A stretch of 64,000 bases of DNA, taken from assembly GCA_027717985.1 (NCBI GenBank), contig JALLOO010000002.1, positions 7,257 to 71,256 on the forward strand, given 5' to 3'. The position numbers were made by a program, and so were the translations under genes. Shown here piece after piece: positions 6,986 to 51,499 of the stretch. How positions within the stretch are numbered: position 1 is the stretch's first letter; each line of letters opens with the position of its first letter. This stretch comes from Patescibacteria group bacterium AH-259-L05 (lineage in GTDB: Bacteria > Patescibacteriota > Patescibacteriia > UBA2591 > UBA6264). The notes beneath the pieces are model-generated. The model was given only the letters and a program-made list of their open reading frames with translations, was not told the origin of the DNA and did not search any database.

Positions 6986-6989
6986 CCTC

Positions 6990-7080: not shown

Positions 7081-7139
7081 TGTCTCTCCAAAGAAAAAGC
7101 CAGCACAATATGCTGACCTTTTTGAAAAGAACAAATCCA

Positions 7140-12576: not shown

Positions 12577-13800
12577 TTACTTCCAATCAGAAATTGTTTC
12601 AATAACTATATATTTACCAGATATTTCTCGCTGCCCTATCTCCTCCAATATATTCTGATGAATCTTTTCAACCTTTCGTAATTCAGGATCTGATAAATTT
12701 GATTTCAAAAGAGACGCTATTTTCAAAAACTTCTCAACATTGATCTTAATTATATTTGGATTCCACCATGGCTTCGCACTTGCCCACCAATATTGATCAG
12801 AGGCAAACGCCTTGTCTAATAACTTTCTCGCCCTTTTGTACTGAGGGCTATTATCGTATTTCTTAATTAATTTAATAATAAAATGAGTTAACTGCCATTG
12901 TAATTTATGAAGATCATTATCTGGATGAGACCATAATGCATATGGTATGTCCTGCTTTAAATCCTTTATCTCTGATGCCCAACTACAAGCTAAAGGATCA
13001 ATCTGTTTAATCGGAGTATCTTTTAATAAATGCAAATATTGGGAATAAGTAATCGTTTTAATCTCTTTCTGGTCTAAAATCTTTGCCCATATATCAATTA
13101 AATGCGCGCGGTGATGTCCTAAGGTCTCTCCGTCAAATGCAGTGACTAAAAATGTGTCTGATCGTCCGTCGTGTTTCACGCTTTGAAGAAACTTATCAAC
13201 CGAATCTAACCATGTCCCAAAAAAGATTAAACTTACTCCACGATTTCGAAAAGTCACTTTAAGATTTTTTTTCTTACCTTGATTTCGAAATAAATCCTTT
13301 ATTTCGTATCGTCTATTAAATGAAACATGATTAAATGTATTATCATATGCAATCTCATCTAAAACAATCCATTCATATCCTAAACTTTGAATAATACGCG
13401 CAGTTTTTTTATCATATGCTAACTCTGGCAAAAAAAATCCTTTTGGCCGCGGCCGCCACACACTTTTAAAATACTTTTGATTAATATTTTCATTCAGCTT
13501 TATTTGACGGATTATTTCTGATTTTGATAAAAACGGTAAAATTGGATGATACTTGGCTGATCCAACAAACTCAATTTGACCATTTTCAGCCAACTTTTTA
13601 ATCCGCTCAAGTATATGTATATATCCATACTCGACCAGCTTCTCTGTTAAGCTTGCGCAAATATTTAAGGTAATTTTTGCATTTGGCCGTGCTTCTAAAA
13701 TAGACAAAATCTTATCATACGATTCAGTTACTACTTTATGTATAATTTTTTTTGTTTGAAAATATGGCTGATAAATGTGTAATAAATTTGCCCAATACAT
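12577..13800 (-). CDS. glycoside hydrolase family 57 enzyme (407 aa)
   Basis: LLHIYQP, ENGQIEFVGSAKYHPILPFL, GFFLPELAYD, FDGETLGHH and DQYWWASAKPWW. Paralog of the 4217..6208 protein. Confidence 0.7.
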   Translation of the reverse strand: MYWANLLHIYQPYFQTKKIIHKVVTESYDKILSILEARPNAKITLNICASLTEKLVEYGYIHILERIKKLAENGQIEFVGSAKYHPILPFLSKSEIIRQIKLNENINQKYFKSVWRPRPKGFFLPELAYDKKTARIIQSLGYEWIVLDEIAYDNTFNHVSFNRRYEIKDLFRNQGKKKNLKVTFRNRGVSLIFFGTWLDSVDKFLQSVKHDGRSDTFLVTAFDGETLGHHRAHLIDIWAKILDQKEIKTITYSQYLHLLKDTPIKQIDPLACSWASEIKDLKQDIPYALWSHPDNDLHKLQWQLTHFIIKLIKKYDNSPQYKRARKLLDKAFASDQYWWASAKPWWNPNIIKINVEKFLKIASLLKSNLSDPELRKVEKIHQNILEEIGQREISGKYIVIETISDWK

Positions 13801-16594: not shown

Positions 16595-17254
16595 TTACCT
16601 TTTCATTAAACTTAATTGATACTCTTTTACCTCTTTGCGTAAATATTTTTTTACTCTTGGCCAAGAATAACTTGAATCAAAAACTCTAATACGCCGACTG
16701 CGTGTAGCAGGAGTAGATTTTTCAGCATCAACAAAATAAATAAGTCCCCTCAGAGCCGTTAATACATTAAAGGTTGGATACTTCTCTTTTGTTAATCTTA
16801 TAATCTTTTTAAGGCCCATTTTCTGAATTAAATAATACATATCAATAAAATCTCTCTTAGTTCCTCTCTGAACAATGGCAGCTACTTTCATAGCTGCGAT
16901 ATCTTCAACAGAAGCTACAGGCACGCCGGAAATTAAAACCTTCGGGCGAATCAAAGCATATGGATAATAAAAACAACTAATGTCTACGCCCTGAACGCTT
17001 AATATTAATGTATCTTGCTCTATAACATCCTCTTCAATATCTTCTATAGAGAAGTGTCTATAAAAATCTTTTATTAATAAACGTCCATCAAATTTCTCAG
17101 GACTATAAAAATCAAAATCCTGGGATGTTCGATGGCCCATCTGTAAAGCCAATGCTGTCCCGCCAGATAAATACCCTCCACGTTCTTTAAGAAAAGTTAA
17201 TTTCTCAAAAACTTTTCTTTTTTGATAACTTAAAATAGTCTTTAAATACATCAA
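16595..17254 (-). CDS. AbiEii/AbiGii-like nucleotidyltransferase (putative toxin)
   Basis: GGTALALQMGHRTSQDFDFY matches the GGTAL plus DxD nucleotidyltransferase signature. It is shorter than typical AbiEii. Confidence 0.5.
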   Translation of the reverse strand: MMYLKTILSYQKRKVFEKLTFLKERGGYLSGGTALALQMGHRTSQDFDFYSPEKFDGRLLIKDFYRHFSIEDIEEDVIEQDTLILSVQGVDISCFYYPYALIRPKVLISGVPVASVEDIAAMKVAAIVQRGTKRDFIDMYYLIQKMGLKKIIRLTKEKYPTFNVLTALRGLIYFVDAEKSTPATRSRRIRVFDSSYSWPRVKKYLRKEVKEYQLSLMKR

Positions 17255-17549
17255 AGCGCGGATTAATATCTAAAATAGCCCATTTATAAACTTGTTTAGG
17301 GATCTTCACATCTAAAATTTTAGCCCAATAATTAAGAGATTTAGGGAACCACATCCCTCGTCTTGGATTTTTAACAACTTCAACAATATCTTGCTTTTTA
17401 TATGTTTTAAAAAGCCATTTCACTGCCCTTATATTACCACGATTTAAAACCTGTTGAATAATCAACTCTTTGTCATCGGGATCATAAGGATCCATTTGAG
17501 AAATGTCATACGACCACAAACATGTTTGTAAAAATTTAGGTAAAGCCAT
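17205..17549 (-). CDS. hypothetical protein; possible cognate partner of the AbiEii-like gene (50-nt overlap)
   Basis: Upstream overlapping ORF of 114 aa. No wHTH AbiEi signature was recognised. Confidence 0.3.
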   Translation of the reverse strand: MALPKFLQTCLWSYDISQMDPYDPDDKELIIQQVLNRGNIRAVKWLFKTYKKQDIVEVVKNPRRGMWFPKSLNYWAKILDVKIPKQVYKWAILDINPRFDVFKDYFKLSKKKSF

Positions 17550-17669: not shown

Positions 17670-18770
17670 ATGTCTACGCTTGATGATATAAATAAAATCA
17701 AACAACTTGATACATCAGGTATGGCTGATTTTATTGCTGATCTCCCCAACCAAATCCTCAAAGCATATAAACAAAGCCAGAAAATAAAATTGCCTAAAAA
17801 TTTTAAAAATATCTCAAATATTGTCGCCTGCGGCATGGGCGGTTCAGCTATTGGCGGTGACGTAGTCAAGGCACTGATTGATAATCAATTATCATTGCCG
17901 TTTATTATAAACCGCTCGTATCAATTGTCCCAAACAGTCAATAAAAACAGCTTGGTGTTTTTAGTTAGTTTTTCAGGCAATACCCAAGAAACCTTATCCT
18001 GCGCGAAAGTTGCAATACAGAAAAAAGCGCATATATTTGTTATCACCAGCGGTGGAAAACTATTAGTACTCGCTCAAGAAAAAAAAATACCCTTATTTAC
18101 ATTTTCATATAAAGGTCCGCCCCGCGCAAGCTTAGGCTATTTATTTATACCCATACTTATAACGTTAGAAAAACTTGGTCTTGTTAATCTTGATGCATTC
18201 AACATCACAGAATCAATTGAAAAACTAAAAAAATTTAACCAGCTATTTTACCCAGAAACGCCAAGCGAAAAAAATATTGCAAAATACTTAGCATATTTTA
18301 TATTTGACCATCTCCCTATTATTATTGCCCCTGAAGAGCTTAATGGTATTGCAAGACGCTTTAAAACACAAATGGCAGAAAATGCAAAAACATTTTCTTT
18401 TTTTGAAACTGCTCCTGAAATTTTTCACAATTCTATTGAAAGCCAATTTCCGTGGCGATTAAAAGATGATATTGTTTTTTTAATTCTCTCTCCTTTGTCT
18501 TCCCGCGCTTCGCGCGGGAAGACAAGAGAAGAAATGTCATCCCGAGCGCAGTCAAGGGAAGAAAAATTCATCACTGTTTTTAAAAAATTATTAGATAAAG
18601 AAAATATTCGCTGGGAAGCAATACCTGCATCTGGAGATAACGTATTTCTCAATATACTCTCTTTTATTCTTGCGGGTGATTGGATTAGTTTTTATTTGTC
18701 TATCCTTAATGAAACTGACCCCACGCCTGTTAAAAAAATACAATGGCTCAAGCGTCAAATAAAACAATGA
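17670..18770 (+). CDS. bifunctional phosphoglucose/phosphomannose isomerase (SIS domain)
   Basis: NIVACGMGGSAIGGDVV SIS motif, plus a C-terminal PGI/PMI-type region. The likely start is MSTLDDIN at 17670. It carries a palindromic repeat insertion at 18497-18568. Confidence 0.6.
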   Translation: MSTLDDINKIKQLDTSGMADFIADLPNQILKAYKQSQKIKLPKNFKNISNIVACGMGGSAIGGDVVKALIDNQLSLPFIINRSYQLSQTVNKNSLVFLVSFSGNTQETLSCAKVAIQKKAHIFVITSGGKLLVLAQEKKIPLFTFSYKGPPRASLGYLFIPILITLEKLGLVNLDAFNITESIEKLKKFNQLFYPETPSEKNIAKYLAYFIFDHLPIIIAPEELNGIARRFKTQMAENAKTFSFFETAPEIFHNSIESQFPWRLKDDIVFLILSPLSSRASRGKTREEMSSRAQSREEKFITVFKKLLDKENIRWEAIPASGDNVFLNILSFILAGDWISFYLSILNETDPTPVKKIQWLKRQIKQ

Positions 18771-21123: not shown

Positions 21124-21196
21124 TTGTCATTCCTTTTTTATTGTCATCCCGCACGAAACGCGGGATGACAAGGGGGTGTGCGGGATGACAAGGGGG
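21124..21196. repeat. GTCATCCCGC palindromic element, probable bidirectional terminator
   Basis: tgtcatcccgcacgaaacgcgggatgaca is a perfect 10-bp stem, followed by a second cgggatgacaaggggg half-site. It lies between convergent genes. Confidence 0.55.
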
Positions 21197-21206
21197 AGAA
21201 AACTTT

Positions 21207-21608
21207 CTATTCTGGAGCAGTTACCTCACTCAACCGCTCAATCACAAATGTAGCAATTGTATACGCTAAAATAACAATAATTAAGCCGACAACTGCGCTG
21301 GTTATAATACCCTTGGCTTTTTTTATTTTTTCCTCATTTCCACCCGAGGTCATCCACATAAATCCACCCACAATTAAAAGAACCACTAAAATAAGCCCTA
21401 ATAATTGTAACACAACTTTTACCATCCTGCCGACCAACGTTGGCACATCTGTTTCAGTTCCTAATCCTGCTTCGCCTGCAACATTTCGCAATTGTTCTAA
21501 CTGTGCAAAGGCAGGAGTAGCAATAATAAACAAAAATAAAAAAATGCTGACAAAACAAACAAATTGCGTGCCTGAAAAAACAGGCCTGCTATCTCTTATG
21601 CCTTCCAT
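21207..21608 (-). CDS. secreted bitopic membrane protein, paralog 1 (VirB2/TrbC-pilin-like topology)
   Basis: Sec signal peptide (…TPAFA/QLEQ), then TM1 ending LLIVGGFMWMTSGGNEEKIKKAKG, then TM2. Confidence 0.45.
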   Translation of the reverse strand: MEGIRDSRPVFSGTQFVCFVSIFLFLFIIATPAFAQLEQLRNVAGEAGLGTETDVPTLVGRMVKVVLQLLGLILVVLLIVGGFMWMTSGGNEEKIKKAKGIITSAVVGLIIVILAYTIATFVIERLSEVTAPE

Positions 21609-21631
21609 ACGATCTAATTTAATACTTCCTA

Positions 21632-21997
21632 CTAAGAGGCTCCTGTTACGCCCGTCAATTGATCAACAACAAATGTCGCAGCTGCGTATGCGATTATAAC
21701 AATCACTAAACCAATAATAGCTGCGCCCATCAACTGCTTTGCCTTGCCCACCTTTTCTTCATTCCCACCTGAGGTCATCCACATAAATCCGCCAACAATA
21801 AGCAAAATCGTAGCTATTAATCCGAGAAGGCTCAAAACAACCTTTACAATCGCGCCAATAACCTCTGGCAAACTTTTTGTCCCTAATCCAGCATTCTGCC
21901 CAAACTCAAGCAATCCTTCATTTAAAGCTTGCCCAAATGCTAATGAAGGCACCAATAGCAGTGAAACCAAAAGTGTAGAAGCAATAAGTTTTTTCAT
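21632..21997 (-). CDS. secreted bitopic membrane protein, paralog 2
   Basis: Signal peptide (…SLAFG/QAL) and LLIVGGFMWMTSGGNEEKVGKAKQ. Confidence 0.45.
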   Translation of the reverse strand: MKKLIASTLLVSLLLVPSLAFGQALNEGLLEFGQNAGLGTKSLPEVIGAIVKVVLSLLGLIATILLIVGGFMWMTSGGNEEKVGKAKQLMGAAIIGLVIVIIAYAAATFVVDQLTGVTGAS

Positions 21998-22099
21998 ACA
22001 AACTCTATTAATTTTTTAAACCCAACGACTTTATATACTATTTATACAAAATAAACCACAATTAGTCAAGTTTTCTACTGTGTATAACTTGTTGTATTG

Positions 22100-22250
22100 G
22101 AATTCCTAAATTCCGATACATACAAGAGGAAGGGGATCGGGGAAACGTAGTTTCCCCGTGGGGGTGACAGAAGCGAATGAAGTGAGCGACGCCAGAGGGC
22201 GGAAGCTCTATGGAGAACATAGTTCGCGAGCATTAGCGAGCGACTCCGTT
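22100..22250. repeat. GC-rich repeat/hairpin block within the pilin-like cluster
   Basis: cggggaaacgtagtttccccg is a perfect 9-bp palindrome, together with gaagtgagcgacg/gagcgactc motifs shared with 50058-50180. Confidence 0.4.
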
Positions 22251-22252
22251 CA

Positions 22253-22612
22253 TTACTCCCCTTTTAATGCCTTTAAAATAAACTCCAGAATTGCATAACT
22301 AAAGAAAATAAACGCCAATCCTATCACAGCCCATACAATCGTATCTTTTCCTTTTTTTATTTTTTCTGCATTTCCGCCTGAGGTCATCCACAAAATTCCC
22401 CCGTAGATAAACATTACCAAAGCCAAAACGCCCACAATGCCTAAAACTGCTTTAATAATCCTGCCAGCCAACTCTGGAATTGGTTCTTTCCCCTCTAAAT
22501 TTAGAGGGTCTTCCAATACTTGTGCAAACAAACTCTGGGACAACAATATATATACCCCTATCACCAAAACTACTATCATTCCTGCATAAATTTTATTTTT
22601 TTTATTTAGCAT
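22253..22612 (-). CDS. secreted bitopic membrane protein, paralog 3
   Basis: Signal peptide (…SLFA/QVL) and MFIYGGILWMTSGGNAEKIKKGKD. Confidence 0.45.
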   Translation of the reverse strand: MLNKKNKIYAGMIVVLVIGVYILLSQSLFAQVLEDPLNLEGKEPIPELAGRIIKAVLGIVGVLALVMFIYGGILWMTSGGNAEKIKKGKDTIVWAVIGLAFIFFSYAILEFILKALKGE

Positions 22613-22614
22613 AT

Positions 22615-23592
22615 TTATTTACAAGATGCATTTGTTATATCTTTTCTTATATCTAGTAACATCGAGGGGTCGACTTCCATTGCATACTTATACGTATATT
22701 CATCAACTATACCATTTTCTGCTAATCCAAAAAGGGATTCCTCTTTAAAGCCGTATTCTTGATAAAATCTATTATATGATTTTTTGAAGTTTATTGTGCA
22801 TATTTCTGTCTGCGATCCAAACTTTCCATCTATCCACTTACAATCGCATCCCATATCCTCTAATGCTCGCTGATAATTCTTAACTATTTGCGCTCTCCAG
22901 CATAAGCTATCCTCATTCTGAGGACTTACACAGTTATGACACCAGTAGGTAGTCGGAGCATCTTGAACAGGTGAAAAACAGCCAAAAGTATCAGGTTCTG
23001 GCTCCCATATATCTTCTATATCCCCAAGAAAACCAGGCCCTTCTACATCCTCAATCGGCAATTCTGGCCTTTCTGGCACCTCAAAACTTACATATTCTTC
23101 CTCAACTCCAAACATAGTACCAAGCACTCTAATTCCTGCTACCGCACCTAAAACAATCACCATGCCAACAACTGCGCCGCTGATAATCTTCTTACCTAAC
23201 TGCACCTTTCCAGTAGATCCGCCCGATGTTATCCAAATCACGCCGCCGATAATAAACATAAGCAAGGCAAAAACTCCTAAATATCTTAAAATTATTTTAG
23301 CAATATTAACTCCTAATGCTAAAAAGTTGCTTAAATCACAATCACCACAAAATACGCAAATTGGATCCCTCATCAACCATCCCAATTCACCGCCCTCCAC
23401 TACATTACCGCCCACTACTCTTTCCCCTTCTAGACCTCCCTGACAATTACATTTCCACGTCCCATCTTCTTGTTTTATACAGTCTGAATACCTATCGCCC
23501 CCAATCGCTCTTGGAAAAGCATATACAACAGAACTAATTAAAAATAACAAAAGCAATACTGCAAATATCAAAATTATTTTTTTAGAAAACAT
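22615..23592 (-). CDS. paralog 4: Cys-rich N-domain, pilin-like TM hairpin and C-terminal peptidoglycan-binding-like domain
   Basis: MFIIGGVIWITSGGSTGKVQLGKK core. N-terminal CIKQEDGTWKCNCQGG...CVFCGDCD. C-terminal CKWIDGKFGSQTEICTINFKKSYNRF...GLAENGIVDEYTY resembles PG_binding_1. Confidence 0.45.
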   Translation of the reverse strand: MFSKKIILIFAVLLLLFLISSVVYAFPRAIGGDRYSDCIKQEDGTWKCNCQGGLEGERVVGGNVVEGGELGWLMRDPICVFCGDCDLSNFLALGVNIAKIILRYLGVFALLMFIIGGVIWITSGGSTGKVQLGKKIISGAVVGMVIVLGAVAGIRVLGTMFGVEEEYVSFEVPERPELPIEDVEGPGFLGDIEDIWEPEPDTFGCFSPVQDAPTTYWCHNCVSPQNEDSLCWRAQIVKNYQRALEDMGCDCKWIDGKFGSQTEICTINFKKSYNRFYQEYGFKEESLFGLAENGIVDEYTYKYAMEVDPSMLLDIRKDITNASCK

Positions 23593-24974: not shown

Positions 24975-24988
24975 ATATCATCCCTCCT

Positions 24989-25078
24989 CTTGTCATCCCA
25001 CACTCAATGTGGGAAGACAGAGAGTGGGTTGGAATGACAAAAAAAGATGTCATTCCGCGGACTTTATCCGCGAGATTT
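24989..25078. repeat. GTCATCCCAC / TCATTCCGCGG palindromic elements
   Basis: tgtcatcccacactcaatgtgggaagaca and ccgcggactttatccgcgag hairpins lie between the solute-binding protein start and the galU stop. Confidence 0.5.
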
Positions 25079-27192: not shown

Positions 27193-27591
27193 TTACTCAA
27201 TTGAATTAGAAATTGAAACAGTAAATAATCCTAAGCGCCCTTTATACTTTATCGGAACAGGAAATTTATAAGAGTTCTCAAATCTCCATGCAAATGTATT
27301 ATCTCCATACGGACGCGACCCAACCTCTAGATGAAGTGGCCGGCATGTCTCCCATTCCTTTTCAGTTAACCTTTTTATTTCTATTAAATCCACCGTGCCT
27401 AACAAACAGCCAACCTCATTCTCTAATATAATAGTAATACCTAATCTTTTGCACTCTTCTTTTTCTACGGTGAGACCGGCATGAATTACTAATCTTCCTC
27501 GATATTTTGGCGCCCAACTTCGTATTTCAAACACCCTTTTGTCCTGTACTATCAAATTTGCCCATGGTTGATGAATCGACAATGCTTTCAT
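27193..27591 (-). CDS. ASCH-domain protein
   Basis: MKALSIHQPWANLIVQDKRVFEIRSW. The start ATG overlaps the HIT stop (ATGA). Confidence 0.6.
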   Translation of the reverse strand: MKALSIHQPWANLIVQDKRVFEIRSWAPKYRGRLVIHAGLTVEKEECKRLGITIILENEVGCLLGTVDLIEIKRLTEKEWETCRPLHLEVGSRPYGDNTFAWRFENSYKFPVPIKYKGRLGLFTVSISNSIE

Positions 27592-28085
27592 TAATAATCT
27601 CCTCCGCCTGGAATAGCCTTTCGAATACCACCGCGCGGATTGTCCTCGTCGCCCCAATATCGCGGCATAATATGTATATGCAAATGATGAATCGTTCTCC
27701 CAGCTGCTTCGCCTTCATTAACGCCCCAAATACATCCATCCATTTTCTTATCTATACCAACATGGGTTAACATTTGCTCGCACATTTGTCGAGAGCTCTC
27801 TTTAATAGGATTTTTCAAAAACCTCCTATATACCTCTTTCAAATCCGTCTTATTAATCAGTTTAATAACTGCAGGAATAATATGATAAAGCTCTGTCCAC
27901 TCAGGCGCTCTTAGGTCAAGGTCAAGCAATGAAACAACATGACGTTTTGGAATTATTTCTACGTGCCCAGGGGTTTTGGGAAATTTATCAAACCGCGCAT
28001 ACCAATATTTAGCTTCATAAATAACATCTATTCTTTCCTTATATATCTTGCAAAACAAACACTCATCTAACTCTTTGTCCCCCAT
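27591..28085 (-). CDS. HIT-family hydrolase
   Basis: HHLHIHIMPR histidine triad. Confidence 0.8.
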   Translation of the reverse strand: MGDKELDECLFCKIYKERIDVIYEAKYWYARFDKFPKTPGHVEIIPKRHVVSLLDLDLRAPEWTELYHIIPAVIKLINKTDLKEVYRRFLKNPIKESSRQMCEQMLTHVGIDKKMDGCIWGVNEGEAAGRTIHHLHIHIMPRYWGDEDNPRGGIRKAIPGGGDY

Positions 28086-28257
28086 AACATACCTCCTTTT
28101 GTTAAATGTTTTGAACTACCTCAACTATGCCACAAACTTAACCTTTTGTCAATCCCAAAACCATGCGCGATTTCCATTTCTAACCAAATCAGGACTCAGG
28201 CTTCTGATTCTAATTAAAAATAAATAAAAAAGGCTATCTAATGATAGCCTTAACTTA

Positions 28258-28488
28258 TATAACCCGAACAGCTATGAGCCCTAAATCAGCAAATTCATCA
28301 AGCAAAGCATCATGAATACGACGACGGTACTCTCCTTTATCATCTGTATCTCCATAAAGTGTGAGACGAAAATTCCAATATGGATCATTATTTTCTTTCA
28401 GGCGTTCCACGCCTGGATACGTACCGAGTCATTTGCGAACTTCAGAAACTGGACGACCACTCACTCTTACAAAAACCTTGATAGCCAT
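28258..28488 (-). pseudogene. 77-codon ORF with strong SD, interrupted by one in-frame TGA (codon 20); ferredoxin-like (ABM/Dabb-like?) small protein
   Basis: AGGAGGgaatatatATG; MAIKVFVRVSGRPVSEVRK-TGA-LGTYPGVERLKENNDPYWNFRLTLYGDTDDKGEYRRRIHDALLDEFADLGLIAVRVI. A hairpin CAGGCGuggaaCGCCUG lies 14 nt 3' of the TGA, and a terminator hairpin sits downstream at ~28219-28250. Confidence 0.3.
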
Positions 28489-28710
28489 ATATATTCCCTC
28501 CTCTAATTAAGAATAAGGATAAATATCTATCCTTTATTTGAAATACCTATGTCTAGAGTAGCACAAATGAAAACTTCGTCAATAGCGGCTTGACAAAAAT
28601 TATACATAATACATACTACAATTAGTCACGGCGTATGGGGAGCGCTGTGAAAAGGAGGCAATATCGCTCCTTGCAAAAGCAGAATCCCCAACAGAAAGGA
28701 GGAGTTTGTT

Positions 28711-29518: not shown

Positions 29519-32500
29519 ATGTCAAAACATAAATCAAAATCACAATGGCGGTCTAAAAAAATTAGTTCGCCAAAAAAATCAAAATTCACCAAGAAAAAGT
29601 TATCTCCGGCGGAGCAAAGTCTTCAAAAAGCAAAAAAAACCACCGCACCAAAACGAAAAATAAAACGAGCTAAACCCCAACCCCGTACCAAAACAAGTTC
29701 GGTACGGGGCAAGAAAACAAATCTGGTGAAAAAGCTTTTTATTTTTATTATTTTTCTCGTCCTTGTCTTTGGTGCAATCGGGAGCATCAGTCTATTTTTG
29801 CTTACCAAAAGCCTGCCGCATCCAGAAAAATTAATAGAGCGAAGTATTGCCCAAAGTACGAAAATATATGCCCGAGATGAAAAAACACTGTTATATGAAA
29901 TATTTTCTGAACAAAGGCGAACCGTAGTTGATCTGGAAAAAATTCCTCAGCATCTTGTCTATGCCACTATTGTTTCAGAAGACAGAGATTTTTTTACTCA
30001 TCCAGGATTTGATATTTCTGGGATTGCGCGCGCCATTCTCGTTGATATTCTTCGCGGAGGTAAAGTTCAAGGTGGCTCAACCCTCACCCAGCAGTTTATA
30101 AAAAATGCCTTTTTAACGCGAAAAAAAACATACACCAGAAAAATCAAAGAACTGCTCATGGCATATCAAGTTGAAAAAAAATTTAGCAAACTTGAAATAC
30201 TTCAGATGTACTTTAATGAAATTCCCTACGGATCAAATGCATATGGCGCTGAAGCAGCGAGTCAAATCTATTTTTCAAAATCAGTACGCGACCTAACGTT
30301 AGATGAAACAACGCTCTTAGCTGCGCTTCCGAAAGCGCCTACCTATTACTCTCCCTATGGTCAACACACTGAAGAACTACTTTTTCGCCAACACTTTATT
30401 TTAGATGTTATGACTGAAGAAGGATATATTACCTCTTCGCAGGCTTTGCAGGCTAAAAGCATTAATACGTTAGAAAAAATTACGTCACGTCGTGAAAATA
30501 TTCGCGCTCCTCACTTTGTCTTCTACGTGAGAGAATTATTAACTGAAAAATACGGTGATCGTCTTGTAGAACAGGGCGGGCTCAAGGTTATTACCACACT
30601 TGACTTTGACAAACAAACAATTGCAGAACAAGCAATTGAAAAATATGCAGAGCGTAATGAAGAAATATTTGATGCTACAAATGCGGCATTAGTTGCCATT
30701 GATGTAGATACCGGACAAATTCTTGCTATGGTAGGATCAAAAGATTTTTTTAACGAAGAAATTGATGGCCAAGTAAATGTAGTAACACGAGAACGTCAAC
30801 CAGGATCATCCTTTAAACCAATTGTCTATGCGACCGCATTTGAAAAAGGCTATACCCCTAATACAATTATATTTGATGCAGAAACAAGTTTTGGCCCTAA
30901 AACACCTGAACCAGATGCCCAAGATTATATCCCGCGAAACTATGATGAAAAATTCAGGGGTCCGGTTAGTATGCGAAAAGCATTAGCAGGATCATTAAAT
31001 ATCCCAGGTGTAAAAACAATGTATTTAGCAGGGGTTAATAACGTTTTAAACACGGCGGAACGTATGGGCTACACTACCTTAGAAGACAGAGAACAATACG
31101 GTCTCTCGCTTGTTTTAGGAGGGGGAGAGATAAAACTATTAGAACATGTAGCAGCTTTTGCTATTTTTGCCCGTGAAGGTGTTAAAATCCCTACAACGAG
31201 TATTTTAAAAGTGGAAGATAACAAAGGTAATATTTTAGAAGAATTACCTAAAAAACCCAAACTTCCTCAAACAGTATTTGATCCGCAAATCGCCCGGCTC
31301 ATCAATGACATCTTATCTGATAATCAATCACGGGCGTTTATGTTTGGCTATCAAAACTTTTTAACACTCCCTAATCGGCCTGTTGCCGCAAAAACAGGTA
31401 CTACCAATGACTTTCGTGACGCGTGGACTGTTGGCTTTACGCCAAATCTTGCAGCTGGTGTATGGGTGGGGAATAACAACAATGATGTAATGGGTGAAAA
31501 AGCTGATGGTTCAACGGTTGCCGCGCCCATTTGGAATGAATTTATGAAGCGTGCCTTAGAAAATACCTCTCCTCAACCATTTACTCCTCCTGAAACAATC
31601 TACGTAGACAAGCCAATATTAAACGGGGAAATCCCTGGGAAAATTACGCTCAAAATTGACACGGCATCAAAAAAATTAGCAACTGAGCTCACGCCTGACT
31701 CACAAATAATAGAAAAAACCTTTGTAAGCTTTTATCCTATTCTCTACTACATAGATAAAAATAACCCGCAAGGACCGCTCCCCTCAAACCCAAAAGCTGA
31801 TTATCAATATGAATTCTGGGAAGAGGGAATTACCAACTGGCTTACTGCCGTATCTGAATTACTTGCCTCACCAGCTTCTCCCTCTGTCATCCTGCCACTT
31901 CAGGATGACAAAGAGGAGGGACAGGATGACAAAGAGGAGGGACAGGATGACAAAGAGAGCGTCATCCCGAGCGAAGACGGGGAAGGCCCCAAAGTTGTTA
32001 TTTCTGATTTTATATTTGACCTTGCGCTTGAAGGACTTGAAATACCACCAACTGAATATGATGATGTCCATATTCCAGCAAATGAACCGTATATAAAAAT
32101 TCTTTCTCCTTCAAATAATACAATCATTAATGAAAATGTTATTCGGATAAAGGTAGAAGCATCAGCGCCGCGTGGACTTAAAAAAATAACATGTTCTATT
32201 GATGATGCACCGCTTGATAGTATTGTGGTAAACAGCCCAAATATTCAGTCATACACCTGTGTCCTTGGCCTTAGCGGGATCTCTTCGGGAAAGCATACTA
32301 TTAAAGCAACCGCGCTTGATGATGTTGGTAACAACAATACCGACGCTATTCAAATAATTACCGCTCAAGGATTTGAAAGGACATTTGAATGGCTTTCACC
32401 AAAAAATAATGATGTGGTATATCAAGGTAATTTTCCACTCACACTCTCAGTTCTCACTCCGCCGACTAAAATCAATACGATAAAGTTTTTCGCACAAAAT

Positions 32501-32674
32501 CAAAACACGTATCAGCTTTCACTTATCAGCACTATATTTAATCCTGAAACTGTTGGTGTCATTGAAACGCCTTGGAATTTAGCTGACAAAGGAATGTATG
32601 AACTATGGGCAGAAATGACTGATATTGATGGCCAAACACAGACCAGCAACAAAATCCAAATTGAAATTGAATAA
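29519..32674 (+). CDS. mrcA: class A penicillin-binding protein (transglycosylase plus transpeptidase) with long C-terminal extension
   Basis: GT51 motifs (EDRDFFTHPGFD, GGSTLTQQ), a transpeptidase SxxK region, and a C-terminal domain of roughly 300 aa containing a repeat-encoded DDKEEGQ x2.5 insert. Confidence 0.85.
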   Translation: MSKHKSKSQWRSKKISSPKKSKFTKKKLSPAEQSLQKAKKTTAPKRKIKRAKPQPRTKTSSVRGKKTNLVKKLFIFIIFLVLVFGAIGSISLFLLTKSLPHPEKLIERSIAQSTKIYARDEKTLLYEIFSEQRRTVVDLEKIPQHLVYATIVSEDRDFFTHPGFDISGIARAILVDILRGGKVQGGSTLTQQFIKNAFLTRKKTYTRKIKELLMAYQVEKKFSKLEILQMYFNEIPYGSNAYGAEAASQIYFSKSVRDLTLDETTLLAALPKAPTYYSPYGQHTEELLFRQHFILDVMTEEGYITSSQALQAKSINTLEKITSRRENIRAPHFVFYVRELLTEKYGDRLVEQGGLKVITTLDFDKQTIAEQAIEKYAERNEEIFDATNAALVAIDVDTGQILAMVGSKDFFNEEIDGQVNVVTRERQPGSSFKPIVYATAFEKGYTPNTIIFDAETSFGPKTPEPDAQDYIPRNYDEKFRGPVSMRKALAGSLNIPGVKTMYLAGVNNVLNTAERMGYTTLEDREQYGLSLVLGGGEIKLLEHVAAFAIFAREGVKIPTTSILKVEDNKGNILEELPKKPKLPQTVFDPQIARLINDILSDNQSRAFMFGYQNFLTLPNRPVAAKTGTTNDFRDAWTVGFTPNLAAGVWVGNNNNDVMGEKADGSTVAAPIWNEFMKRALENTSPQPFTPPETIYVDKPILNGEIPGKITLKIDTASKKLATELTPDSQIIEKTFVSFYPILYYIDKNNPQGPLPSNPKADYQYEFWEEGITNWLTAVSELLASPASPSVILPLQDDKEEGQDDKEEGQDDKESVIPSEDGEGPKVVISDFIFDLALEGLEIPPTEYDDVHIPANEPYIKILSPSNNTIINENVIRIKVEASAPRGLKKITCSIDDAPLDSIVVNSPNIQSYTCVLGLSGISSGKHTIKATALDDVGNNNTDAIQIITAQGFERTFEWLSPKNNDVVYQGNFPLTLSVLTPPTKINTIKFFAQNQNTYQLSLISTIFNPETVGVIETPWNLADKGMYELWAEMTDIDGQTQTSNKIQIEIE

Positions 32675-38614: not shown

Positions 38615-38706
38615 TTAAATTCGTCATTCGTCATCCCACACCCCATTCGTCACCTCGCAACTTTTAGCTGCAGGGTGGCACTTTTTCTTGTCATCCAGCT
38701 TCGCGG

Positions 38707-38812
38707 GATGATAAAGTGATGGGATGACAAAGGAATAGGATGACAAAGTGATGGGATGACAAAGGAATAGGATGACAAAGTGATGGGATGACAAAGGAAT
38801 AGGATGACAAAG
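38707..38812. repeat. tandem array: 3.3 copies of the 32-nt unit gatgacaaagtgatgggatgacaaaggaatag (built from 16-nt gatgacaaag-like subunits)
   Basis: Direct repeats with no spacers, preceded by tcgtcattcgtcatcccaca and gtcatccagcttcgcgggatga hairpins. Confidence 0.7.
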
Positions 38813-38920
38813 AGGAGCGGAAGTTATCAACTTGACAGAATTCCAATTAAGTATTATGCTTAAAATAGATCATTATCCTCATTATGAGGATTAACTGTTC
38901 ATTACAAAAGGAGTTATGCT

Positions 38921-41900
38921 ATGAAGAAAATACTGACATCTTTAATGATTGGATTATTGATCTCACTGACTTCTGATCTTAATGCACGAAACAAGATTAA
39001 CTACCGTCCTACAACCTGGAAGCATTATTCTATAAGCCTTGGTGACAATAGTGAAGGGTTTGAACTTTGGATATCAGATCGCCTCGATTCTACACTTCGC
39101 GCTGCAACACCAGAAATCATCAACAACATTTTTACTGACTATTCAAAACTCTTTAGTGGTTTTCGGTGGCAAACTCAGGATTACACGTTCACTAAATTTC
39201 GCTTCTTTTATAAAGATAGTGTAACCGTTGCAGCTGATGATACGCTCGTAACAAACTGGATGGATAAAAACCGAACATACGTAATCTATGCAAATCTGGA
39301 AGACTTTCTGCGACAACAAATATCACCCGGATTCACACAAGCACTTGGTTTTTTTCAGCATATTTTCGGCTTTCGTATCGCCGTGCCATATCCTGGATCA
39401 TACGCATTGTATGAATATATTCTGCGTCATGAATCAGCGCACGCATGGATGTATCAGCTCATGCGCGAATCAGTAAAAACCCATAATAAAAAAATGTCAA
39501 AAGTAAAGGGAACGCGGTATCAGATATTAGGAGAAGATGATCGCTTTAGTATGCCGCTCTGGGTTGTTGAAGGATTTGCTGAATGGGTTGCCCAAAAATT
39601 TGATAGCACACACTATGATCCTATGATCTATCGAACCATTCTTGGAAATAATCACCTCCGTCGTCACGTCACTGACTTGTCCCAAAACCTGCCTGACATT
39701 GCTCATGATATGTATTTTAATCCTTACTATTTTGGTGTTTCATTCTTTAATTGGTTAGAAAAAATCTACGGCAAAGAAAAAATAATTGAATTTTTTATAC
39801 AAAGACCACACTATAAAACAGAAGGGGGTAAAACCGGTTTTGAAAGAGCATGGGAAAAAACGTTTGGGAGAGAAATCTCAGAAATGCACTCAATAAGGCA
39901 GACAGAAATGCAGATTGAATGGAAAGACAGTCTTATTCCGTATTTTAAGCCATACTTTACTGATACCTTGCAATCAATAACTGAACGAGTTACCTGGCCA
40001 ATCAATAAAGAAAAGGGAGAAAAAGAACCGCTGTTAGCTGGCTATGTAAGTCATGATGCAAGCAAGGTTATTTACTATACCCTTGATCCAAAATGGCAAG
40101 CGCGCATTGAAGTACGGGATTTATTTACCAATGAAACCTGGATTGTTCACAAAATGTCTACGAATAAATCTTTGTGGTATCGATTTGACAATGCGCCCGC
40201 TATAGAGGGAAATAAGGTTGCGGTCGTTATTAATCGGGAAGGGCAAGACGAGCTTCGTATATATAAATTACGACAACTTGATCTAATTAAAAAAAGAAAC
40301 ATAGACAAAATTCTCTGGACTAAAGAAAAAACTGCACAGGTAGCTCAAATTGACTCGCTGCGCCATCATGCCATACTCACGATTAATACACCGTCATTTA
40401 ACCATGATGGCACCAAACTTGTGTTTGAAGGAATTGCGCGAAATGGATTTTCTGACCTGTACCTCTGGAACCGTGAAACAGACACACTCTCGCGTCTTAC
40501 CAATGATGTTTACGAAGACTTGCGTCCACGGTTTGAACGAATTAATAAAACCAGCAGTGAAGCGATTGTGTTTATTTCTGATAGAATCAATCCAGCAAAA
40601 ATGGATGTATTTACACTCTGGCCTGAAACAAAAGAAATCACCTCTCTTTATCAACCAAATCAACCGCATACTGTTATTGATCAAATTTCAGTTTCCCCAG
40701 ACTCTCATTTTGTTGCAATGAGAATGGTCTCCCTTGATCATTCACCGCAAATTCTGATATGGAGTCCGCCTCACAATGTTTATCATGTATTCTCTACATT
40801 CTATGGTGTAAGTCAAATTGTTGACTGGATTGATAATAACACCTTGCTGCTCTTAGATGAACGATTTAAGCTGGCAAAATTCCATCTTAATGACCTTAAA
40901 ATGTATGCTCCAATTCCCACAACATATACTGCCATGAAAAAAACTACCTGGCAGCCAATACAACCTGATACCCTTATCAAACCAACACCAATAACAGGAA
41001 AGAAAAAGAAGTATCGATATTTGACACCGCTCGGCTTAGGAAGTTTTGGATTTGCATCAGCAACTGGAGAAGAAATCTATCTCAGCTCTAACCTGTATAT
41101 TTACTATGGATCTGGCCTTGGATGGTTTTATAGCTTCTCAGTTGGTAGAATTGATATGAGGCAACGGCTTCGCAAGTTCTATAGTTTTACTGCATCCCGA
41201 GACCTTAATCTACGTACCTTAGAAAACAGTAAACCGTATTATAACTTTAGGCTGCAGCAAATTACACGCTTTAACTGGGTACTTGATCACAATATTCGAC
41301 TCACTGCAAATTTTTACTGGCCTTTTGATTTTGAAAACGGAATTGGATTGAGTGCTTCAATTGGATGGTTTGGACGGGATTATGAATACGTGTTTCCATA
41401 TTATTACTACTATTACTCTATGACGCGCTCGCTTAATCGCAATACTCTTAAGCCATTGCCGCATCAAAAACCGCTTAACCCAAAAGCTCAAAAATACATG
41501 AAAACAATAAGTCCTGCACTCTATCACGGCTGGTCAAAACAATCAATGGCATCAGTGATTGAATCTATAGGAAAAGGTGCTCTGCTTGGTACTGGTATTT
41601 ACTTTCTCCATGATAAGACATTTTCAAGCATGTATGGCGAAGTAAACCGCGGCACCTGGCTTGCAACGCAACTAGATGTTCTGGCAGTAAACAAAAAAAT
41701 CTTAGAAGGACAGTTTATATTTGATGGACGATTTTATATTCAGATCAAAAACTCACGCGCACTCATTGCAAATAGACTCTATGTGGTAAAATCTCTTGGT
41801 TCAGATAAGCCAATATTTTTGACGCCACGAGTATTAGAAAAACAAAAATTCCCGTACTATAACACAAAGCTTGGAACTGATGCTATACTCAAACAAATTG

Positions 41901-42190
41901 AATTTCGCTTTCCTATTTTAAACTTTATAGTGTTCCAGCCAGCACTGGTACCACCTAATTCTCCTGAAGGTATTATGGGATTCTGGGTAAATGGATCCTT
42001 GTTCTACAATAGTGGTAATATCTGGTTCTATGGAACCGAAATGCCGCAAATAAAACGAGCTGGACTTGCTATAAAACTGAGAATTTTTGGCAATATAAGT
42101 CTACAACACGAACAATATAAAATGAAATATGGAGCAGGACCCTGGACTCATGCATGGAAAAAAGGATGGTTTTTAAACTTTGAGTTCTAG
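38921..42190 (+). CDS. large secreted multidomain protein: peptidase-MA-like HExxH domain, PD40/TolB-like beta-propeller repeats, aromatic beta-rich C-terminal region ending in Phe
   Basis: Signal peptide MKKILTSLMIGLLISLTSDLNA; ILRHESAHAWMY...EGFAEW; NHDGTKLVFEG...DLYLWNRETD; C-terminus ...KKGWFLNFEF. Confidence 0.5.
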   Translation: MKKILTSLMIGLLISLTSDLNARNKINYRPTTWKHYSISLGDNSEGFELWISDRLDSTLRAATPEIINNIFTDYSKLFSGFRWQTQDYTFTKFRFFYKDSVTVAADDTLVTNWMDKNRTYVIYANLEDFLRQQISPGFTQALGFFQHIFGFRIAVPYPGSYALYEYILRHESAHAWMYQLMRESVKTHNKKMSKVKGTRYQILGEDDRFSMPLWVVEGFAEWVAQKFDSTHYDPMIYRTILGNNHLRRHVTDLSQNLPDIAHDMYFNPYYFGVSFFNWLEKIYGKEKIIEFFIQRPHYKTEGGKTGFERAWEKTFGREISEMHSIRQTEMQIEWKDSLIPYFKPYFTDTLQSITERVTWPINKEKGEKEPLLAGYVSHDASKVIYYTLDPKWQARIEVRDLFTNETWIVHKMSTNKSLWYRFDNAPAIEGNKVAVVINREGQDELRIYKLRQLDLIKKRNIDKILWTKEKTAQVAQIDSLRHHAILTINTPSFNHDGTKLVFEGIARNGFSDLYLWNRETDTLSRLTNDVYEDLRPRFERINKTSSEAIVFISDRINPAKMDVFTLWPETKEITSLYQPNQPHTVIDQISVSPDSHFVAMRMVSLDHSPQILIWSPPHNVYHVFSTFYGVSQIVDWIDNNTLLLLDERFKLAKFHLNDLKMYAPIPTTYTAMKKTTWQPIQPDTLIKPTPITGKKKKYRYLTPLGLGSFGFASATGEEIYLSSNLYIYYGSGLGWFYSFSVGRIDMRQRLRKFYSFTASRDLNLRTLENSKPYYNFRLQQITRFNWVLDHNIRLTANFYWPFDFENGIGLSASIGWFGRDYEYVFPYYYYYYSMTRSLNRNTLKPLPHQKPLNPKAQKYMKTISPALYHGWSKQSMASVIESIGKGALLGTGIYFLHDKTFSSMYGEVNRGTWLATQLDVLAVNKKILEGQFIFDGRFYIQIKNSRALIANRLYVVKSLGSDKPIFLTPRVLEKQKFPYYNTKLGTDAILKQIEFRFPILNFIVFQPALVPPNSPEGIMGFWVNGSLFYNSGNIWFYGTEMPQIKRAGLAIKLRIFGNISLQHEQYKMKYGAGPWTHAWKKGWFLNFEF

Positions 42191-42199: not shown

Positions 42200-42232
42200 T
42201 CCCTGTATCAACTACAGGGGTTTTTCTTTTTG
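42200..42232 (+). terminator. rho-independent terminator CCCTGTAtcaactaCAGGGG+T-run
   Basis: Immediately 3' of the 1089-aa gene. Confidence 0.6.
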
Positions 42233-42251
42233 TCATTCCGCGACCTTTTTT

Positions 42252-42283
42252 TGTCATTCCGCGACCAGTGGTCGCGGAATGAC
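42252..42283. repeat. GTCATTCCGCGACC palindromic element
   Basis: gtcattccgcgaccagtggtcgcggaatgac is a perfect 14-bp stem, preceded by a second tgtcattccgcgacc half-copy. Confidence 0.6.
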
Positions 42284-42351
42284 AAAGGTGGGTTGACTTT
42301 TTTCTAAAATCTGTCATGATATAAATAACTAATACGTAAAGGAGGTATGCT

Positions 42352-43695: not shown

Positions 43696-43773
43696 ATACG
43701 TCTTTAAACTACGAAATATATTTTTTGTGTCATCCCGCAAAATTGCGGAATGACAAAAAAAATATTAAAAAAT

Positions 43774-50049: not shown

Positions 50050-50352
50050 TATTGTTTTTGTCATTTCGACCGAGCGAACGAAGTGAGCGAGTGGAGAAAT
50101 CTCATACGTTTACGATAAATGAATGGTGTGAGATTCCTCGTCACGACTACGTCGTGACTCGGAATGACAAGGTGGGAGGTTTACTCGCTCTTCGTAAAGA
50201 CTTTTTCAGAGGTCTCATAATAAGAACCTTCCTTACTTTGTTCGGAGGAACTTTGAAGAGATATCTTTGATGTCATTGCGAGGAGCAGAGCGACGAAGCA
50301 ATCTCATGTATGAGATCCCTCGCTGCGCTCGGGATGACACTGCGTGTCATTT
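50050..50352. repeat. block of long imperfect palindromes of the GTCAT...GGATGACA family plus one AAGAACC-family element (50213-50252)
   Basis: tgtcattgcgaggagcagagcgacgaagcaatctcat/atgagatccctcgctgcgctcgggatgaca, and gtcatttcgaccgagcgaacgaagtgagcga...gtcgtgactcggaatgaca. Confidence 0.55.
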
Positions 50353-50377
50353 ATATCCAAACTTTAATATAACATTT

Positions 50378-51499
50378 ATGAAATTCTCTTGCCGTCAAGA
50401 AAATATATCGTATGGATTAAATATAGGCTCAAAAATTGCCGGAACATCAAAAAGTAGCCTTCCAATTTTAAATAATGTTCTTTTATCTGCTGAATCGGGC
50501 ACTCTTATAATCAGTGCCACAAATTTAGAAATGGCAATTGAAGTAAAAATCCGCGCAAAAGTAGAAAAACAAGGTAAAATTACTATCCCCGCACAAATTT
50601 TAAACAATTATATTAATTTATTAAATGAAAATGAAGTACTTAATTTCAAAGCAGTAAAAAATGAACTTAACATTACCAGTGAAAATCAAAAAACAAAGAT
50701 AAAAGGAGAATTCGCAGAAGAATTTCCTATTATCCCTCATATTGAAAGCAAAGAACAATACATACTAAAGAGTAAAACACTAAAAAATGCATTAGAAAAA
50801 ACAGTATTTGCAATCTCAAGCACTGAAGTAAGAGCTGAATTAAGTGGAGTTCTCTTTTCATTCAATACACCACATGATAATAAAATAACACTAGTAAGTA
50901 CTGATAGTTATCGTCTTTGTGAAAAACAAATTGATATTAAAAAAACCTCACATAAAAATAAAAAAAACATTATTATACCGGTAAGAACATTAGTTGAACT
51001 TTTAAGAGTTATTAAAGATAAAGATGATATAGAAGTATCAGTTTCAGAAAACCAAGTATTATTTAAATATGATGACGTAGAGATAATAACACGAATTATT
51101 AGTGGAGAATTTCCTAATTATAAGAGCACCATACCACCAGAATTTAGAACCAAAGTGCTTATTAAGAGAGAAAGCTTTTTAACTGCGGTAAAAGGAGCCG
51201 GATTTTTTACTCGTTTAGGCGTTAACGATATTAATATACAGTTTATAGCTAAAAATAATAAGTTAGTAGTTTCTTCTTTAAATAATCAGTTAGGGGAAAA
51301 TCAAACAACATTAAAAGCAGATATTAGTGGTGAGGATAATGAAATTGTTTTTAATTATCATTACTTAATTGATGGTTTAACTAATATAAAAGGAAAAGAG
51401 GTTAGTTTAGAAATCGTAAATGATAATATGCCAGGCGTGATACGATCAGAGGACGACAAACATTATCTATATTTAATAATGCCAATTAAGAACTCATAA
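50378..51499 (+). CDS. dnaN: DNA polymerase III beta sliding clamp
   Basis: MKFSCRQENISYGLNIGSKIA...LPILNNVLL. The ORF-track N-terminal 37 codons are repeat-derived. Confidence 0.85.
   Translation: MKFSCRQENISYGLNIGSKIAGTSKSSLPILNNVLLSAESGTLIISATNLEMAIEVKIRAKVEKQGKITIPAQILNNYINLLNENEVLNFKAVKNELNITSENQKTKIKGEFAEEFPIIPHIESKEQYILKSKTLKNALEKTVFAISSTEVRAELSGVLFSFNTPHDNKITLVSTDSYRLCEKQIDIKKTSHKNKKNIIIPVRTLVELLRVIKDKDDIEVSVSENQVLFKYDDVEIITRIISGEFPNYKSTIPPEFRTKVLIKRESFLTAVKGAGFFTRLGVNDINIQFIAKNNKLVVSSLNNQLGENQTTLKADISGEDNEIVFNYHYLIDGLTNIKGKEVSLEIVNDNMPGVIRSEDDKHYLYLIMPIKNS

Follow-up and report, generated by a model that had tools for sequence, protein, structure and literature searches.

The gene for penicillin-binding protein 1A (PBP1A) of Patescibacteria group bacterium AH-259-L05 (hereafter L05) lies at 29519-32674 on the plus strand of the 64-kb stretch of this genome that was analysed as a whole and is called the window below. 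[quoted passage not shown] Copies of this family appear to end in TGTCATYCC...GGRATGACA, flanked by pyrimidine-rich and purine-rich tails, and to have proliferated in the lineage of AH-259-L05; the genomes of Patescibacteria are small and reduced. The host gene is a 1051-aa open reading frame (ORF) encoding a class A PBP of the PBP1A family, whose product is 100% identical to the NCBI PBP1A-family protein of AH-259-L05 and contains the Pfam domains Transgly (aa 124-298), Transpeptidase (aa 390-677) and the Ig-like Big_7 (aa 857-930). At the other end of the gene, 29519-29730 encodes a lysine-rich N-terminal extension of about 70 aa ahead of the membrane anchor, which is variable among orthologs.

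The inserted segment, delimited by flank alignment, codon comparison, GC content and structural confidence of the encoded region, stands for 15 nt of the ortholog in the closest relative, AH-259-L07 (L07), giving a net addition of 93 nt or 31 codons, and encodes ASPSVILPLQDDKEEGQDDKEEGQDDKESVIPSEDG. In the PBP1A frame the stretch is translated as ASPASPSVILPLQDDKEEGQDDKEEGQDDKESVIPSEDGEGPKVV, and the flagged region reads ASPSVILPLQDDKEEGQDDKEEGQDDKESVIPSEDGEGP. The encoded peptide is acidic (net charge -11), and the GC content is 57% in the insert, 39% in the PBP1A gene and 35% in the window. On the 5' side lies a hairpin, designated type B (31878-31918, plus strand; CTCCCTCTGTCATCCTG, loop CCACTT, CAGGATGACAAAGAGGAG), in which the exact inverted repeats GTCATCCTG (31886-31894) and CAGGATGAC (31901-31909) form the core stem and imperfect arms reach 13-22 nt, with a DNA fold of -11.8 kcal/mol (z -4.9 versus shuffles). 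The right arm of this hairpin is reiterated in a tandem array at 31901-31957 (plus strand), where Tandem Repeats Finder (TRF) reports a 21-nt unit CAGGATGACAAAGAGGAGGGA in 2.7 copies with 100% matches and a score of 114; it is read as DDKEEGQ repeats and has matches at other sites. The 16-mer GTCATCCCGAGCGAAG follows in frame 3' of the array (31961-31976), and belongs to a second module, designated type A (GTCATCCCGAGCGAAGACGGGGAAGG, 31961-31988, plus strand), which is read as VIPSEDGEG. As revealed by 16-mer search and BLAST, the same module occurs in the phosphoglucose/phosphomannose isomerase (PGI) gene (18536), in atpG and upstream of dnaN (50338, minus strand). The PBP1A type A sequence is a degenerate copy at best, having GGGGAAGG where the closing arm is expected and folding no better than shuffles (z 0.07). 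The first-pass annotation had described this region (31884-31982) as a perfect palindrome followed by 2.5 copies of a 21-nt unit and a third motif; hairpin, array and third motif are all present in frame, but the first of these is a hairpin with a 9-bp stem rather than a perfect palindrome, because the non-palindromic 6-nt loop CCACTT separates its arms, the array holds 2.7 copies and the start had been placed 2 nt upstream of the hairpin. In RNA form the insert has a more stable fold than any of 200 shuffles (z -4.0). A function of the hairpin as intrinsic terminator or promoter is unsupported, and no terminator-like site was found at the insert.

That the PBP1A copy is related to sequences elsewhere in the window was examined with a covariance model, R1, constructed from six other hairpins with the PBP1A copy and an intergenic copy at 6988 left out. 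With R1, the PBP1A site reached 30.3 bits (E 3.2e-6) and the copy at 6988 was recovered at E 4.5e-5; no unrelated match in the window was better than E 0.24. BLAST comparison of the insert with the rest of the window revealed the 17-mer AGGATGACAAAGAGGAG with 17/17 identity at intergenic 38801-38817 (E 6e-4), GGATGACAA-GAGGAGGGA with 18/19 identity at 24981-24998 and GTCATCCCGAGCG with 13/13 identity at 18536 and 50338. The site also has the features by which the family is recognized, namely hairpin arms (T)TGTCWTYC / GRAWGACA(A) with pyrimidine-rich and purine-rich tails. Judged by these identities, the PBP1A insert is a member of the repeat family with TGTCAT...ATGACA ends, and the earlier claim that its nucleotide sequence is shared with intergenic copies of one family is borne out by the BLAST identities and the R1 match.

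The family is strongly overrepresented in the window: GTCATYCC occurs 26 times versus 2.0 expected, GGATGACAAAG with at most one mismatch 18 times versus 1.1 expected, and the 16-mer GTCATCCCGAGCGAAG with at most three mismatches 8 times versus 0.12 expected, while 8 hairpins of the form GTCWTYC...GRAWGAC lie in these 64 kb and other loci totalling 1.83 Mb have 4, all of them weak. These matches group at 10 places, seven intergenic and three genic (PBP1A, atpG and PGI), corresponding to about one site per 6 kb. The type B module forms a strong hairpin, (T)TTGTCATYCC-variable-GGRATGACAA(AG), whose 5' tail is rich in pyrimidines and whose 3' tail is rich in purines; its DNA fold z values range from -3.2 to -8.9. 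The type A module has the form GTCATYCCGAGCGMAG...GGGAAG/GGGATCTC. In an alignment of the family hairpins (A3) the tag TGTC is invariant, with CGTC found only at 31959-31962 and in 38621-38631. One arm of type B frequently recurs in tandem: the period is 20 nt at 21163/21183, 16/32 nt (6.8 copies) at 38705-38812 and 21 nt both at 42227-42266 and in PBP1A. PBP1A and PGI have a common layout of type B hairpin, spacer and then type A.

Comparison with relatives points to a gain in the L05 lineage. PBP1A of L07 is 86% identical to the L05 protein in the BLAST alignment, or 92% if only ungapped columns are counted. The corresponding L07 DNA (locus L001) aligns as far as 31873 with 94% identity and again beginning with 31982 with 89%, leaving 15 nt in between versus 108 in L05. 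The L07 site reads GCC TCA CCA CCA ACT GAC AAA GAA GAA GGG CCC (ASPPTDKEEGP) and that of the outgroup P0003 reads ...ACT GAC GAG AAA GAG GAG TCC, so that L07 and P0003 carry 15-24 nt at the insert position. The identities of 92/82/82% yield the tree ((L05,L07),P0003), in which both L07 and P0003 are without the insert, and therefore one gain of 93 nt (31 codons) in L05 explains the pattern. The insert is also found in none of 37 further PBP1A orthologs that were aligned, and the L05 linker between two conserved motifs is, at 68 aa, the longest among 64 orthologs (median 10 aa, next longest 42). The alignments thus show 93 nt as a gain by L05 relative to sister and outgroup. As proposed earlier, the stretch was inserted in frame; the addition is specific to this lineage and lies in the linker that follows the transpeptidase region. 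The comparison with orthologs that had been suggested earlier does show the insert to be absent, but the empty site already encodes a short acidic DKEEG/DEKEE. An ancestral acidic stretch with no likeness to the intergenic copies, which had been named as the finding that would speak against the proposal, is nevertheless not what is observed, because that likeness is demonstrable. An exact metagenome search for the PBP1A junction GGATGACAAAGAGGAGGGACAGGATGAC gave no match.

A stretch of L07 is syntenic with the window over about 35 kb and covers five L05 family sites. The PGI site, the spacer at 21126 and the PBP1A site are empty in L07, the spacer at 24981 holds a different repeat, and atpG has one unit in L07 versus three in L05; hence at four of the five shared sites the L05 copy is absent or replaced in L07, and the remaining site differs in copy number. 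The family is nearly absent from L07, and an R1 scan of 1.3 Mb from about 80 related genomes revealed nothing convincing except two elements of about 108 nt in L069, a metagenome-assembled genome of Candidatus Buchananbacteria. By these comparisons the repeat family appears young and unstable in the L05 lineage.

The two other genic copies are also in frame. The copy in PGI (18486-18563, plus strand) consists of a hairpin, CTTTGTCTTCCCGCGC/GCGCGGGAAGACAAG, with a fold z of -7.2, followed by GTCATCCCGAGCGCAGTCAAGGGAAG; L07 is without it and the ortholog P0243 has the type A part. In atpG (57953-58042, minus strand), TRF, ortholog comparison and structural confidence identify three 30-nt tandem copies of CCTCTCCCTCCCCTGTCATTCCGAGCGAGC, which are read as (PSPSPVIPSE)x3, the encoded peptide containing SPVIPSEPSPSPVIPSEPSPSPVIPSEQ. 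Among atpG orthologs, L07 has one unit (PLVIPSE), a distant ortholog has a possible relic (SVVPDEP) and the remainder have none. The GTCATYCCGAGCG module is translated in the same frame as VIPSE in both PBP1A and atpG, as had been noticed in the first-pass annotation, and in another frame in PGI, giving MSSRAQSREEK. The further claim that the element is tolerated in both orientations does not hold, since PBP1A and atpG lie on opposite chromosome strands but GTCATYCCGAGCG is on the coding strand in PBP1A, atpG and PGI. The PGI ortholog P0243 (L082, Logan SRR33235153, 76-1200, at about nt 930-1010) has 30 nt of type A identical to L05. At the position of the L05 hairpin it carries an unrelated one, TCCCTCGCCCAG ctca CTGGGTGAGGGA, and L07 has neither hairpin nor type A. 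The simplest idea for a shared type A beside unlike hairpins would be ectopic conversion between copies.

Genic copies are few. Only three of the 10 sites are genic, in a window of which 85% or more is coding sequence (binomial P = 1.4e-4), and all three genic sites are length-variable among orthologs. In AlphaFold models built with ortholog alignments, PBP1A aa 788-825 are predicted to have no secondary structure, with the confidence score pLDDT below 50, the insert (aa 786-821) lying between a helix ending at aa 783 and a helix starting at aa 830; likewise atpG aa 207-247, which include the insert (aa 212-241), have pLDDT below 50 and no secondary structure. The net gain in PBP1A is divisible by three and the frame in use contains no stop; of the insert's six frames, three are open. 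Tandem periods are 21 and 30 nt within genes, and 16/32, 20 and 21 nt between genes. The scarcity of genic sites, the disordered linkers and the periods divisible by three therefore fit a filter by which genic copies persist only when in frame and in a tolerant loop.

The seven intergenic sites display further arrangements of the same modules. At 6988-7090 (plus strand; the site held out from R1) a type A module is nested in the loop of a type B hairpin. At 21126-21200 (plus strand) folding identifies a hairpin GTCATCCCGC/GCGGGATGAC, whose right arm is duplicated with a 20-nt period, in a spacer whose L07 ortholog lacks the copy, and at 24981-25075 (plus strand) a type B hairpin is followed by an extra arm and a second hairpin. 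The site at 38623-38823 (plus strand), recognized by TRF and motif search, has a hairpin and then the right-arm unit GGGATGACAAAG... in 6.8 copies (16-nt period; 32-nt unit in 3.3 copies). At 42227-42292 (plus strand) TRF finds the left arm duplicated with a 21-nt period, followed by a hairpin with a 17-bp stem (fold z -8.9), and the copy at 43722-43765 (plus strand; fold z -6.0) lies between convergent genes. Upstream of dnaN, at 50130-50339 (no strand assigned), the sequence contains an end module (50130-50179) and a complete 69-nt mini-element, TGTCAT...ATCTC/GAGAT...ATGACA (50271-50339), with the same architecture as the elements of about 108 nt in L069. The dnaN ORF as listed (50267-51499, plus strand) starts at a TTG within this repeat cluster, with the Pfam N-terminal domain beginning only at aa 38; its true start is probably the ATG at about 50378, and therefore the repeats would be upstream of the gene and not inside it.

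The GGGATGACAAAG array itself (38705-38812; 6.8 copies with a 16-nt period and a 32-nt super-period, 98% matches) has an iteron-like look and is located about 110 nt upstream of a 1089-aa ORF (38921-42190) with no Pfam domain; GC skew changes sign at about 42-46 kb of the window. A second intergenic repeat family, CAAGGTTCT-GAC/TCC-GAGCGAAGCGAGGAAT-GGTTCTTA, is present in both L05 (11198-11277, 13861-13901, 37392-37467 and 45786-45849 of the window) and L07 (L001, 1598-1684 and 5129-5190). It shares the core GAGCGAAGCGAGG with the type A module and fills the L07 spacer at the position of the L05 TGTCAT hairpins at 24981-25075. Other features of the window include four consecutive paralogs resembling type IV secretion system pilin/TrbC (21207-23592, minus strand), which are conserved in L07, and two toxin-antitoxin-like pairs, AbiEii with DUF6922 (16595-17549, minus strand) and HepT with MNT (Polbeta nucleotidyltransferase; 52277-53085, minus strand). 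An ASCH-domain ORF (27193-27657) and a HIT-domain ORF (27591-28085), both on the minus strand, overlap as listed by 67 nt, and the TTG start of the ASCH ORF is probably too far upstream.

Outside L05, the long form of the hairpin family seems to be represented by the two L069 elements (6056-6163 and 12756-12863), which have the arrangement TTTGTCAT-hairpin-ATCTCC ... GGAGAT-hairpin-ATGACAAAA; similar ends are present in L065 and L076. The 69-nt sequence at 50271-50339 is a complete shorter version of this architecture, and therefore the L05 hairpins look like two abutting ends of a MITE-like element, with type A resembling a single end. The type A module, GTCATYCC-GAGCGMAGCGA-GGRATC, in which GTCATCCCGAGCGMAG is expected to be followed by (C)GAGGGAYC, closing a stem ATCCC/GGGAT, has 68 distinct exact matches in IMG/VR contigs with GC contents of 38-71%. 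The closing arm GAGGGAYC was found within 45 nt downstream in 40 of these 68 versus 1/68 for the upstream control, and the type A hairpin outside L05 takes the form ATCCC-GA-GC[GAA]GC-GA-GGGAT. On this sequence evidence, type A is the only module with internal signs of being widespread. A pan-bacterial type B family, initially suggested by more than 120 metagenome matches to TTGTCATYCC..GGRATGACAA, was rejected, as permuted-arm controls gave 11 and 0 matches versus 10 real ones in the viral collection. Rfam reported only one tRNA in the window at gathering thresholds, and in E-value mode only meaningless miRNA-hairpin matches far below threshold; a literature search for the repeat sequences and translated peptides returned nothing relevant.

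Near the PBP1A locus, L07 encodes a 224-aa Y1 transposase (L001, 8022-8822) that resembles REP-associated tyrosine transposases (RAYTs; PF01797 E 2.6e-7; NF047646 41.8 bits versus a cut-off of 80). AAAATCGGGGGTCSGACCCCCGATTTT stands on both sides of this gene, giving a REPtron-like unit, and the flanks correspond to ATCGGGGGTCSGACCCCCGAT, a repeat different from the TGTCAT family. The neighbouring HIT-domain protein is shortened in L07 (114 aa versus 164 aa in L05), and no RAYT-like gene is found at the syntenic place in L05 (window 28086-28710). This transposase was considered as the mobiliser of the L05 family and set aside, given the different flanking hairpins, the missing gene at the L05 syntenic site and a protein cluster that is a singleton.

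Under the preferred reading of a dispersed palindromic repeat, new copies would originate either through transposition or through ectopic conversion by other copies, and in PBP1A microhomology with the ancestral codons GAC AAA GAR GAR GG may have helped. Replication slippage promoted by the hairpin would then reiterate one arm, within genes only arrays with a period divisible by three would survive, and selection would purge genic insertions save those in tolerant surface loops. The acidic peptide would not be an evolved domain but a passenger, its effect being to extend the linker that joins the transpeptidase region to the Ig-like domains. Several observations weigh against this account. The empty site of L07 and P0003 is already acidic and reads TGACAAAGARGARGG, and therefore a local origin of the 21-nt unit is possible; it also resembles the purine-rich arm of the element (L07 TGACAAAGAAGAAGGG versus element ATGACAAAGAGGAGGG). 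The 93 nt split exactly into 27 nt (left arm and loop), 42 nt (two units) and 24 nt (AGCGTCATCCCGAGCGAAGACGGG, interrupting a third unit), and therefore several events rather than one clean insertion are indicated. No transposase domain was detected among the approximately 50 ORFs of the window, and no direct repeat flanks the PBP1A, PGI or 21126 copies in comparison with the empty L07 sites, where junctions are blurred by divergence. The family census rests on 64 kb of the L05 genome, which is represented by a single assembly of one single-cell genome. As to the likeness of the empty site, it is possible that the DKEEG codons drew conversion or insertion by microhomology, that they are a relic of an older copy or that they reflect K/E codon composition, and ancestral sequence may have been the source, or the target, of part of the 21-nt unit. 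Similarity of target sites as a general rule was rejected, as only the PBP1A empty site resembles the arm and those of PGI and 21126 do not. A purely local origin of the insert remains unlikely because of the match to the held-out model, the 17-mer and the shared type A module.

Such a local origin, in which slippage would have expanded the ancestral acidic DKEEG linker and any likeness to the intergenic repeats would be a coincidence of purine-rich K/E codons, is very improbable. In its favour, the codons present in L07 (ACT GAC AAA GAA GAA GGG) and P0003 (ACT GAC GAG AAA GAG GAG) could seed such an expansion, the linker is K/E-rich in many orthologs, and once the 24 nt of AGCGTCATCCCGAGCGAAGACGGG are removed the third unit becomes CAGGATGACAAAGAG-GAAGGC, which is identical to the unit at 19 of 21 positions. 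What it leaves unexplained is the hairpin-forming left arm, the identity of the 17-mer and the 18/19 agreement with intergenic copies, the 13-16 nt of GTCATCCCGAGCG(AAG) common to three other sites and the R1 match; moreover, a hairpin with a reiterated arm is also present at intergenic 21126 and 38690. The BLAST identities and the held-out model thus largely refute it. An artefact of single-cell amplification or assembly has hardly any credibility: the genome is a single amplified genome, the PBP1A protein cluster has one member on one contig and multiple displacement amplification chimeras do make inverted junctions, but the insert is in frame and stop-free, its motifs recur at about 10 other places, the atpG module is also found in the independent genome L07 and the PGI module in an unrelated Logan assembly, and typical short reads, with an assumed length of about 150 nt, would exceed the 57-nt array.

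An adaptive role is improbable as well, whether as a selected spacer that alters the reach or charge of the C-terminal Ig-like domains of PBP1A or as an mRNA hairpin or Shine-Dalgarno-like GAGGAGG sites that tune translation. It would suit the strongly acidic peptide, the RNA fold and an intact ORF in a gene whose remainder is conserved at about 90% nucleotide identity. Set against this, the insert is confined to one genome, with the sister L07 and all other orthologs managing without it, it is modelled as disordered, the same DNA is found in spacers and in unrelated proteins in other frames, and there is no terminator-like site. Rather more room, though still on the unlikely side, is left for true REPs moved by a RAYT-type (Y1/HUH) tyrosine transposase encoded elsewhere in L05, with the reiterated arm arising from RAYT cleavage and rejoining and not from slippage. 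The elements are indeed 26-45-nt palindromes, mostly extragenic, with a conserved tag beside a variable stem, the sister L07 encodes the RAYT-like protein described above, and intragenic REPs and complex REP arrays were reported by Di Nocera et al. (PMC3733652). This is countered by a tag that is TGTC in most copies and not GTAG or CGTC, and by the 69-nt and approximately 108-nt TGTCAT...ATGACA copies, which are more MITE-like. The L07 gene scores below the NCBIfam cut-off, has unrelated flanking hairpins, is missing at the L05 syntenic place and has no L05 homolog in its 90% cluster, and L07 possesses this gene yet has almost no family copies.

A more ambitious joint reading, which is doubtful, would take the family as a palindromic element currently active in a streamlined genome of the candidate phyla radiation (CPR)/Patescibacteria and as a regular source of linkers and loops in essential proteins (PBP1A, ATP synthase gamma and PGI), with type A (GTCATYCC-GAGCGAAGCGA-GGRATC) being part of an undescribed element in contigs of 38-71% GC. 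The wholesale replacement of the hairpin beside type A, as between L05 and P0243 in PGI, would then hint at enzyme-driven (HUH/Y1 or other) site-directed writing of palindromes into coding DNA. Under the simpler, preferred reading, the L05 family is a miniature palindromic repeat that expanded in a burst specific to this lineage, is all but missing from a sister genome whose DNA is about 90% identical, and lengthened three housekeeping proteins by 15-31 residues without disrupting them. It bears on selfish DNA as a seed of new protein linkers, and L05 and L07 provide a natural before/after pair for comparative work. For annotation, the element can explain odd low-complexity inserts and spurious small ORFs with VIPSE or SSRAQ peptides.

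Among known systems, slippage-type intragenic tandem repeats are similar in their perfect head-to-tail units (21 and 30 nt) and variable copy number (three versus one in atpG), but the L05 unit is the arm of a dispersed palindromic element and not a purely local sequence. MITEs, such as Coxiella QMITE1/2, ERIC and Correia elements (PMC5896051, PMC10969869), are likewise non-autonomous, with terminal inverted repeats, lineage-specific bursts and occasional in-frame gene fusion; terminal inverted repeats are present at 50271-50339 and, with the same ends, in the L069 elements, and presence/absence polymorphism is seen between L05 and L07, whereas the L05 copies are much shorter, show no visible target-site duplication and consist mostly of two abutting ends. 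REPs, which are GTAG- or CGTC-tagged and RAYT-associated and are known in intragenic positions and complex arrays (Di Nocera et al. 2013, PMC3733652), and bacterial interspersed mosaic elements (BIMEs) share with the L05 family short, imperfect palindromes in which one end is conserved and the stem varies, arranged in clusters and arrays. As in REPs, an imperfect palindrome of 20-40 bp is present in many copies, with seven of the 10 sites in the non-coding part of the window (at most 15%) and sometimes within genes. The L05 family differs in being without the GTAG tag, with CGTC in a minority of copies, and in having no RAYT in the window, the RAYT-like gene of the sister L07 bearing other hairpins.

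The closest parallel is provided by the RPEs, a palindromic form of selfish DNA that, as described in PMC10969869 and PMC5896051, is joined in frame to housekeeping genes within a reduced genome. In Rickettsia they measure about 100-150 bp, are CGTC-tagged and comprise the families RPE-1 to RPE-10 (Ogata et al. 2000, 2002, as cited in the same two papers). For RPEs, intragenic REPs and QMITEs alike, copies within genes have been reported (PMC10969869, PMC3733652, PMC5896051). The L05 family resembles RPEs as a dispersed palindromic repeat in a small reduced genome, with a sizeable share in frame in unrelated housekeeping genes, a conserved peptide at tolerant positions of the fold and presence/absence differences between close relatives. 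It differs in its shorter hairpins (26-45 nt, composites about 70-110 nt), in the TGTC tag of most copies versus CGTC, in the extensive tandem reiteration of one arm and in its host in the Patescibacteria (CPR), with only three of 10 sites genic. The family is thus functionally equivalent to the RPE phenomenon, yet stands outside the RPE and REP families, from which it is set apart by size, TGTC tag, lack of a RAYT partner in the window and host; a sequence likeness to RPEs, for which no search was made, is not evident. The PBP1A insert and its repeat family reveal no new kind of system; what they represent is the Rickettsia RPE phenomenon recurring in an unrelated lineage with reduced genomes.

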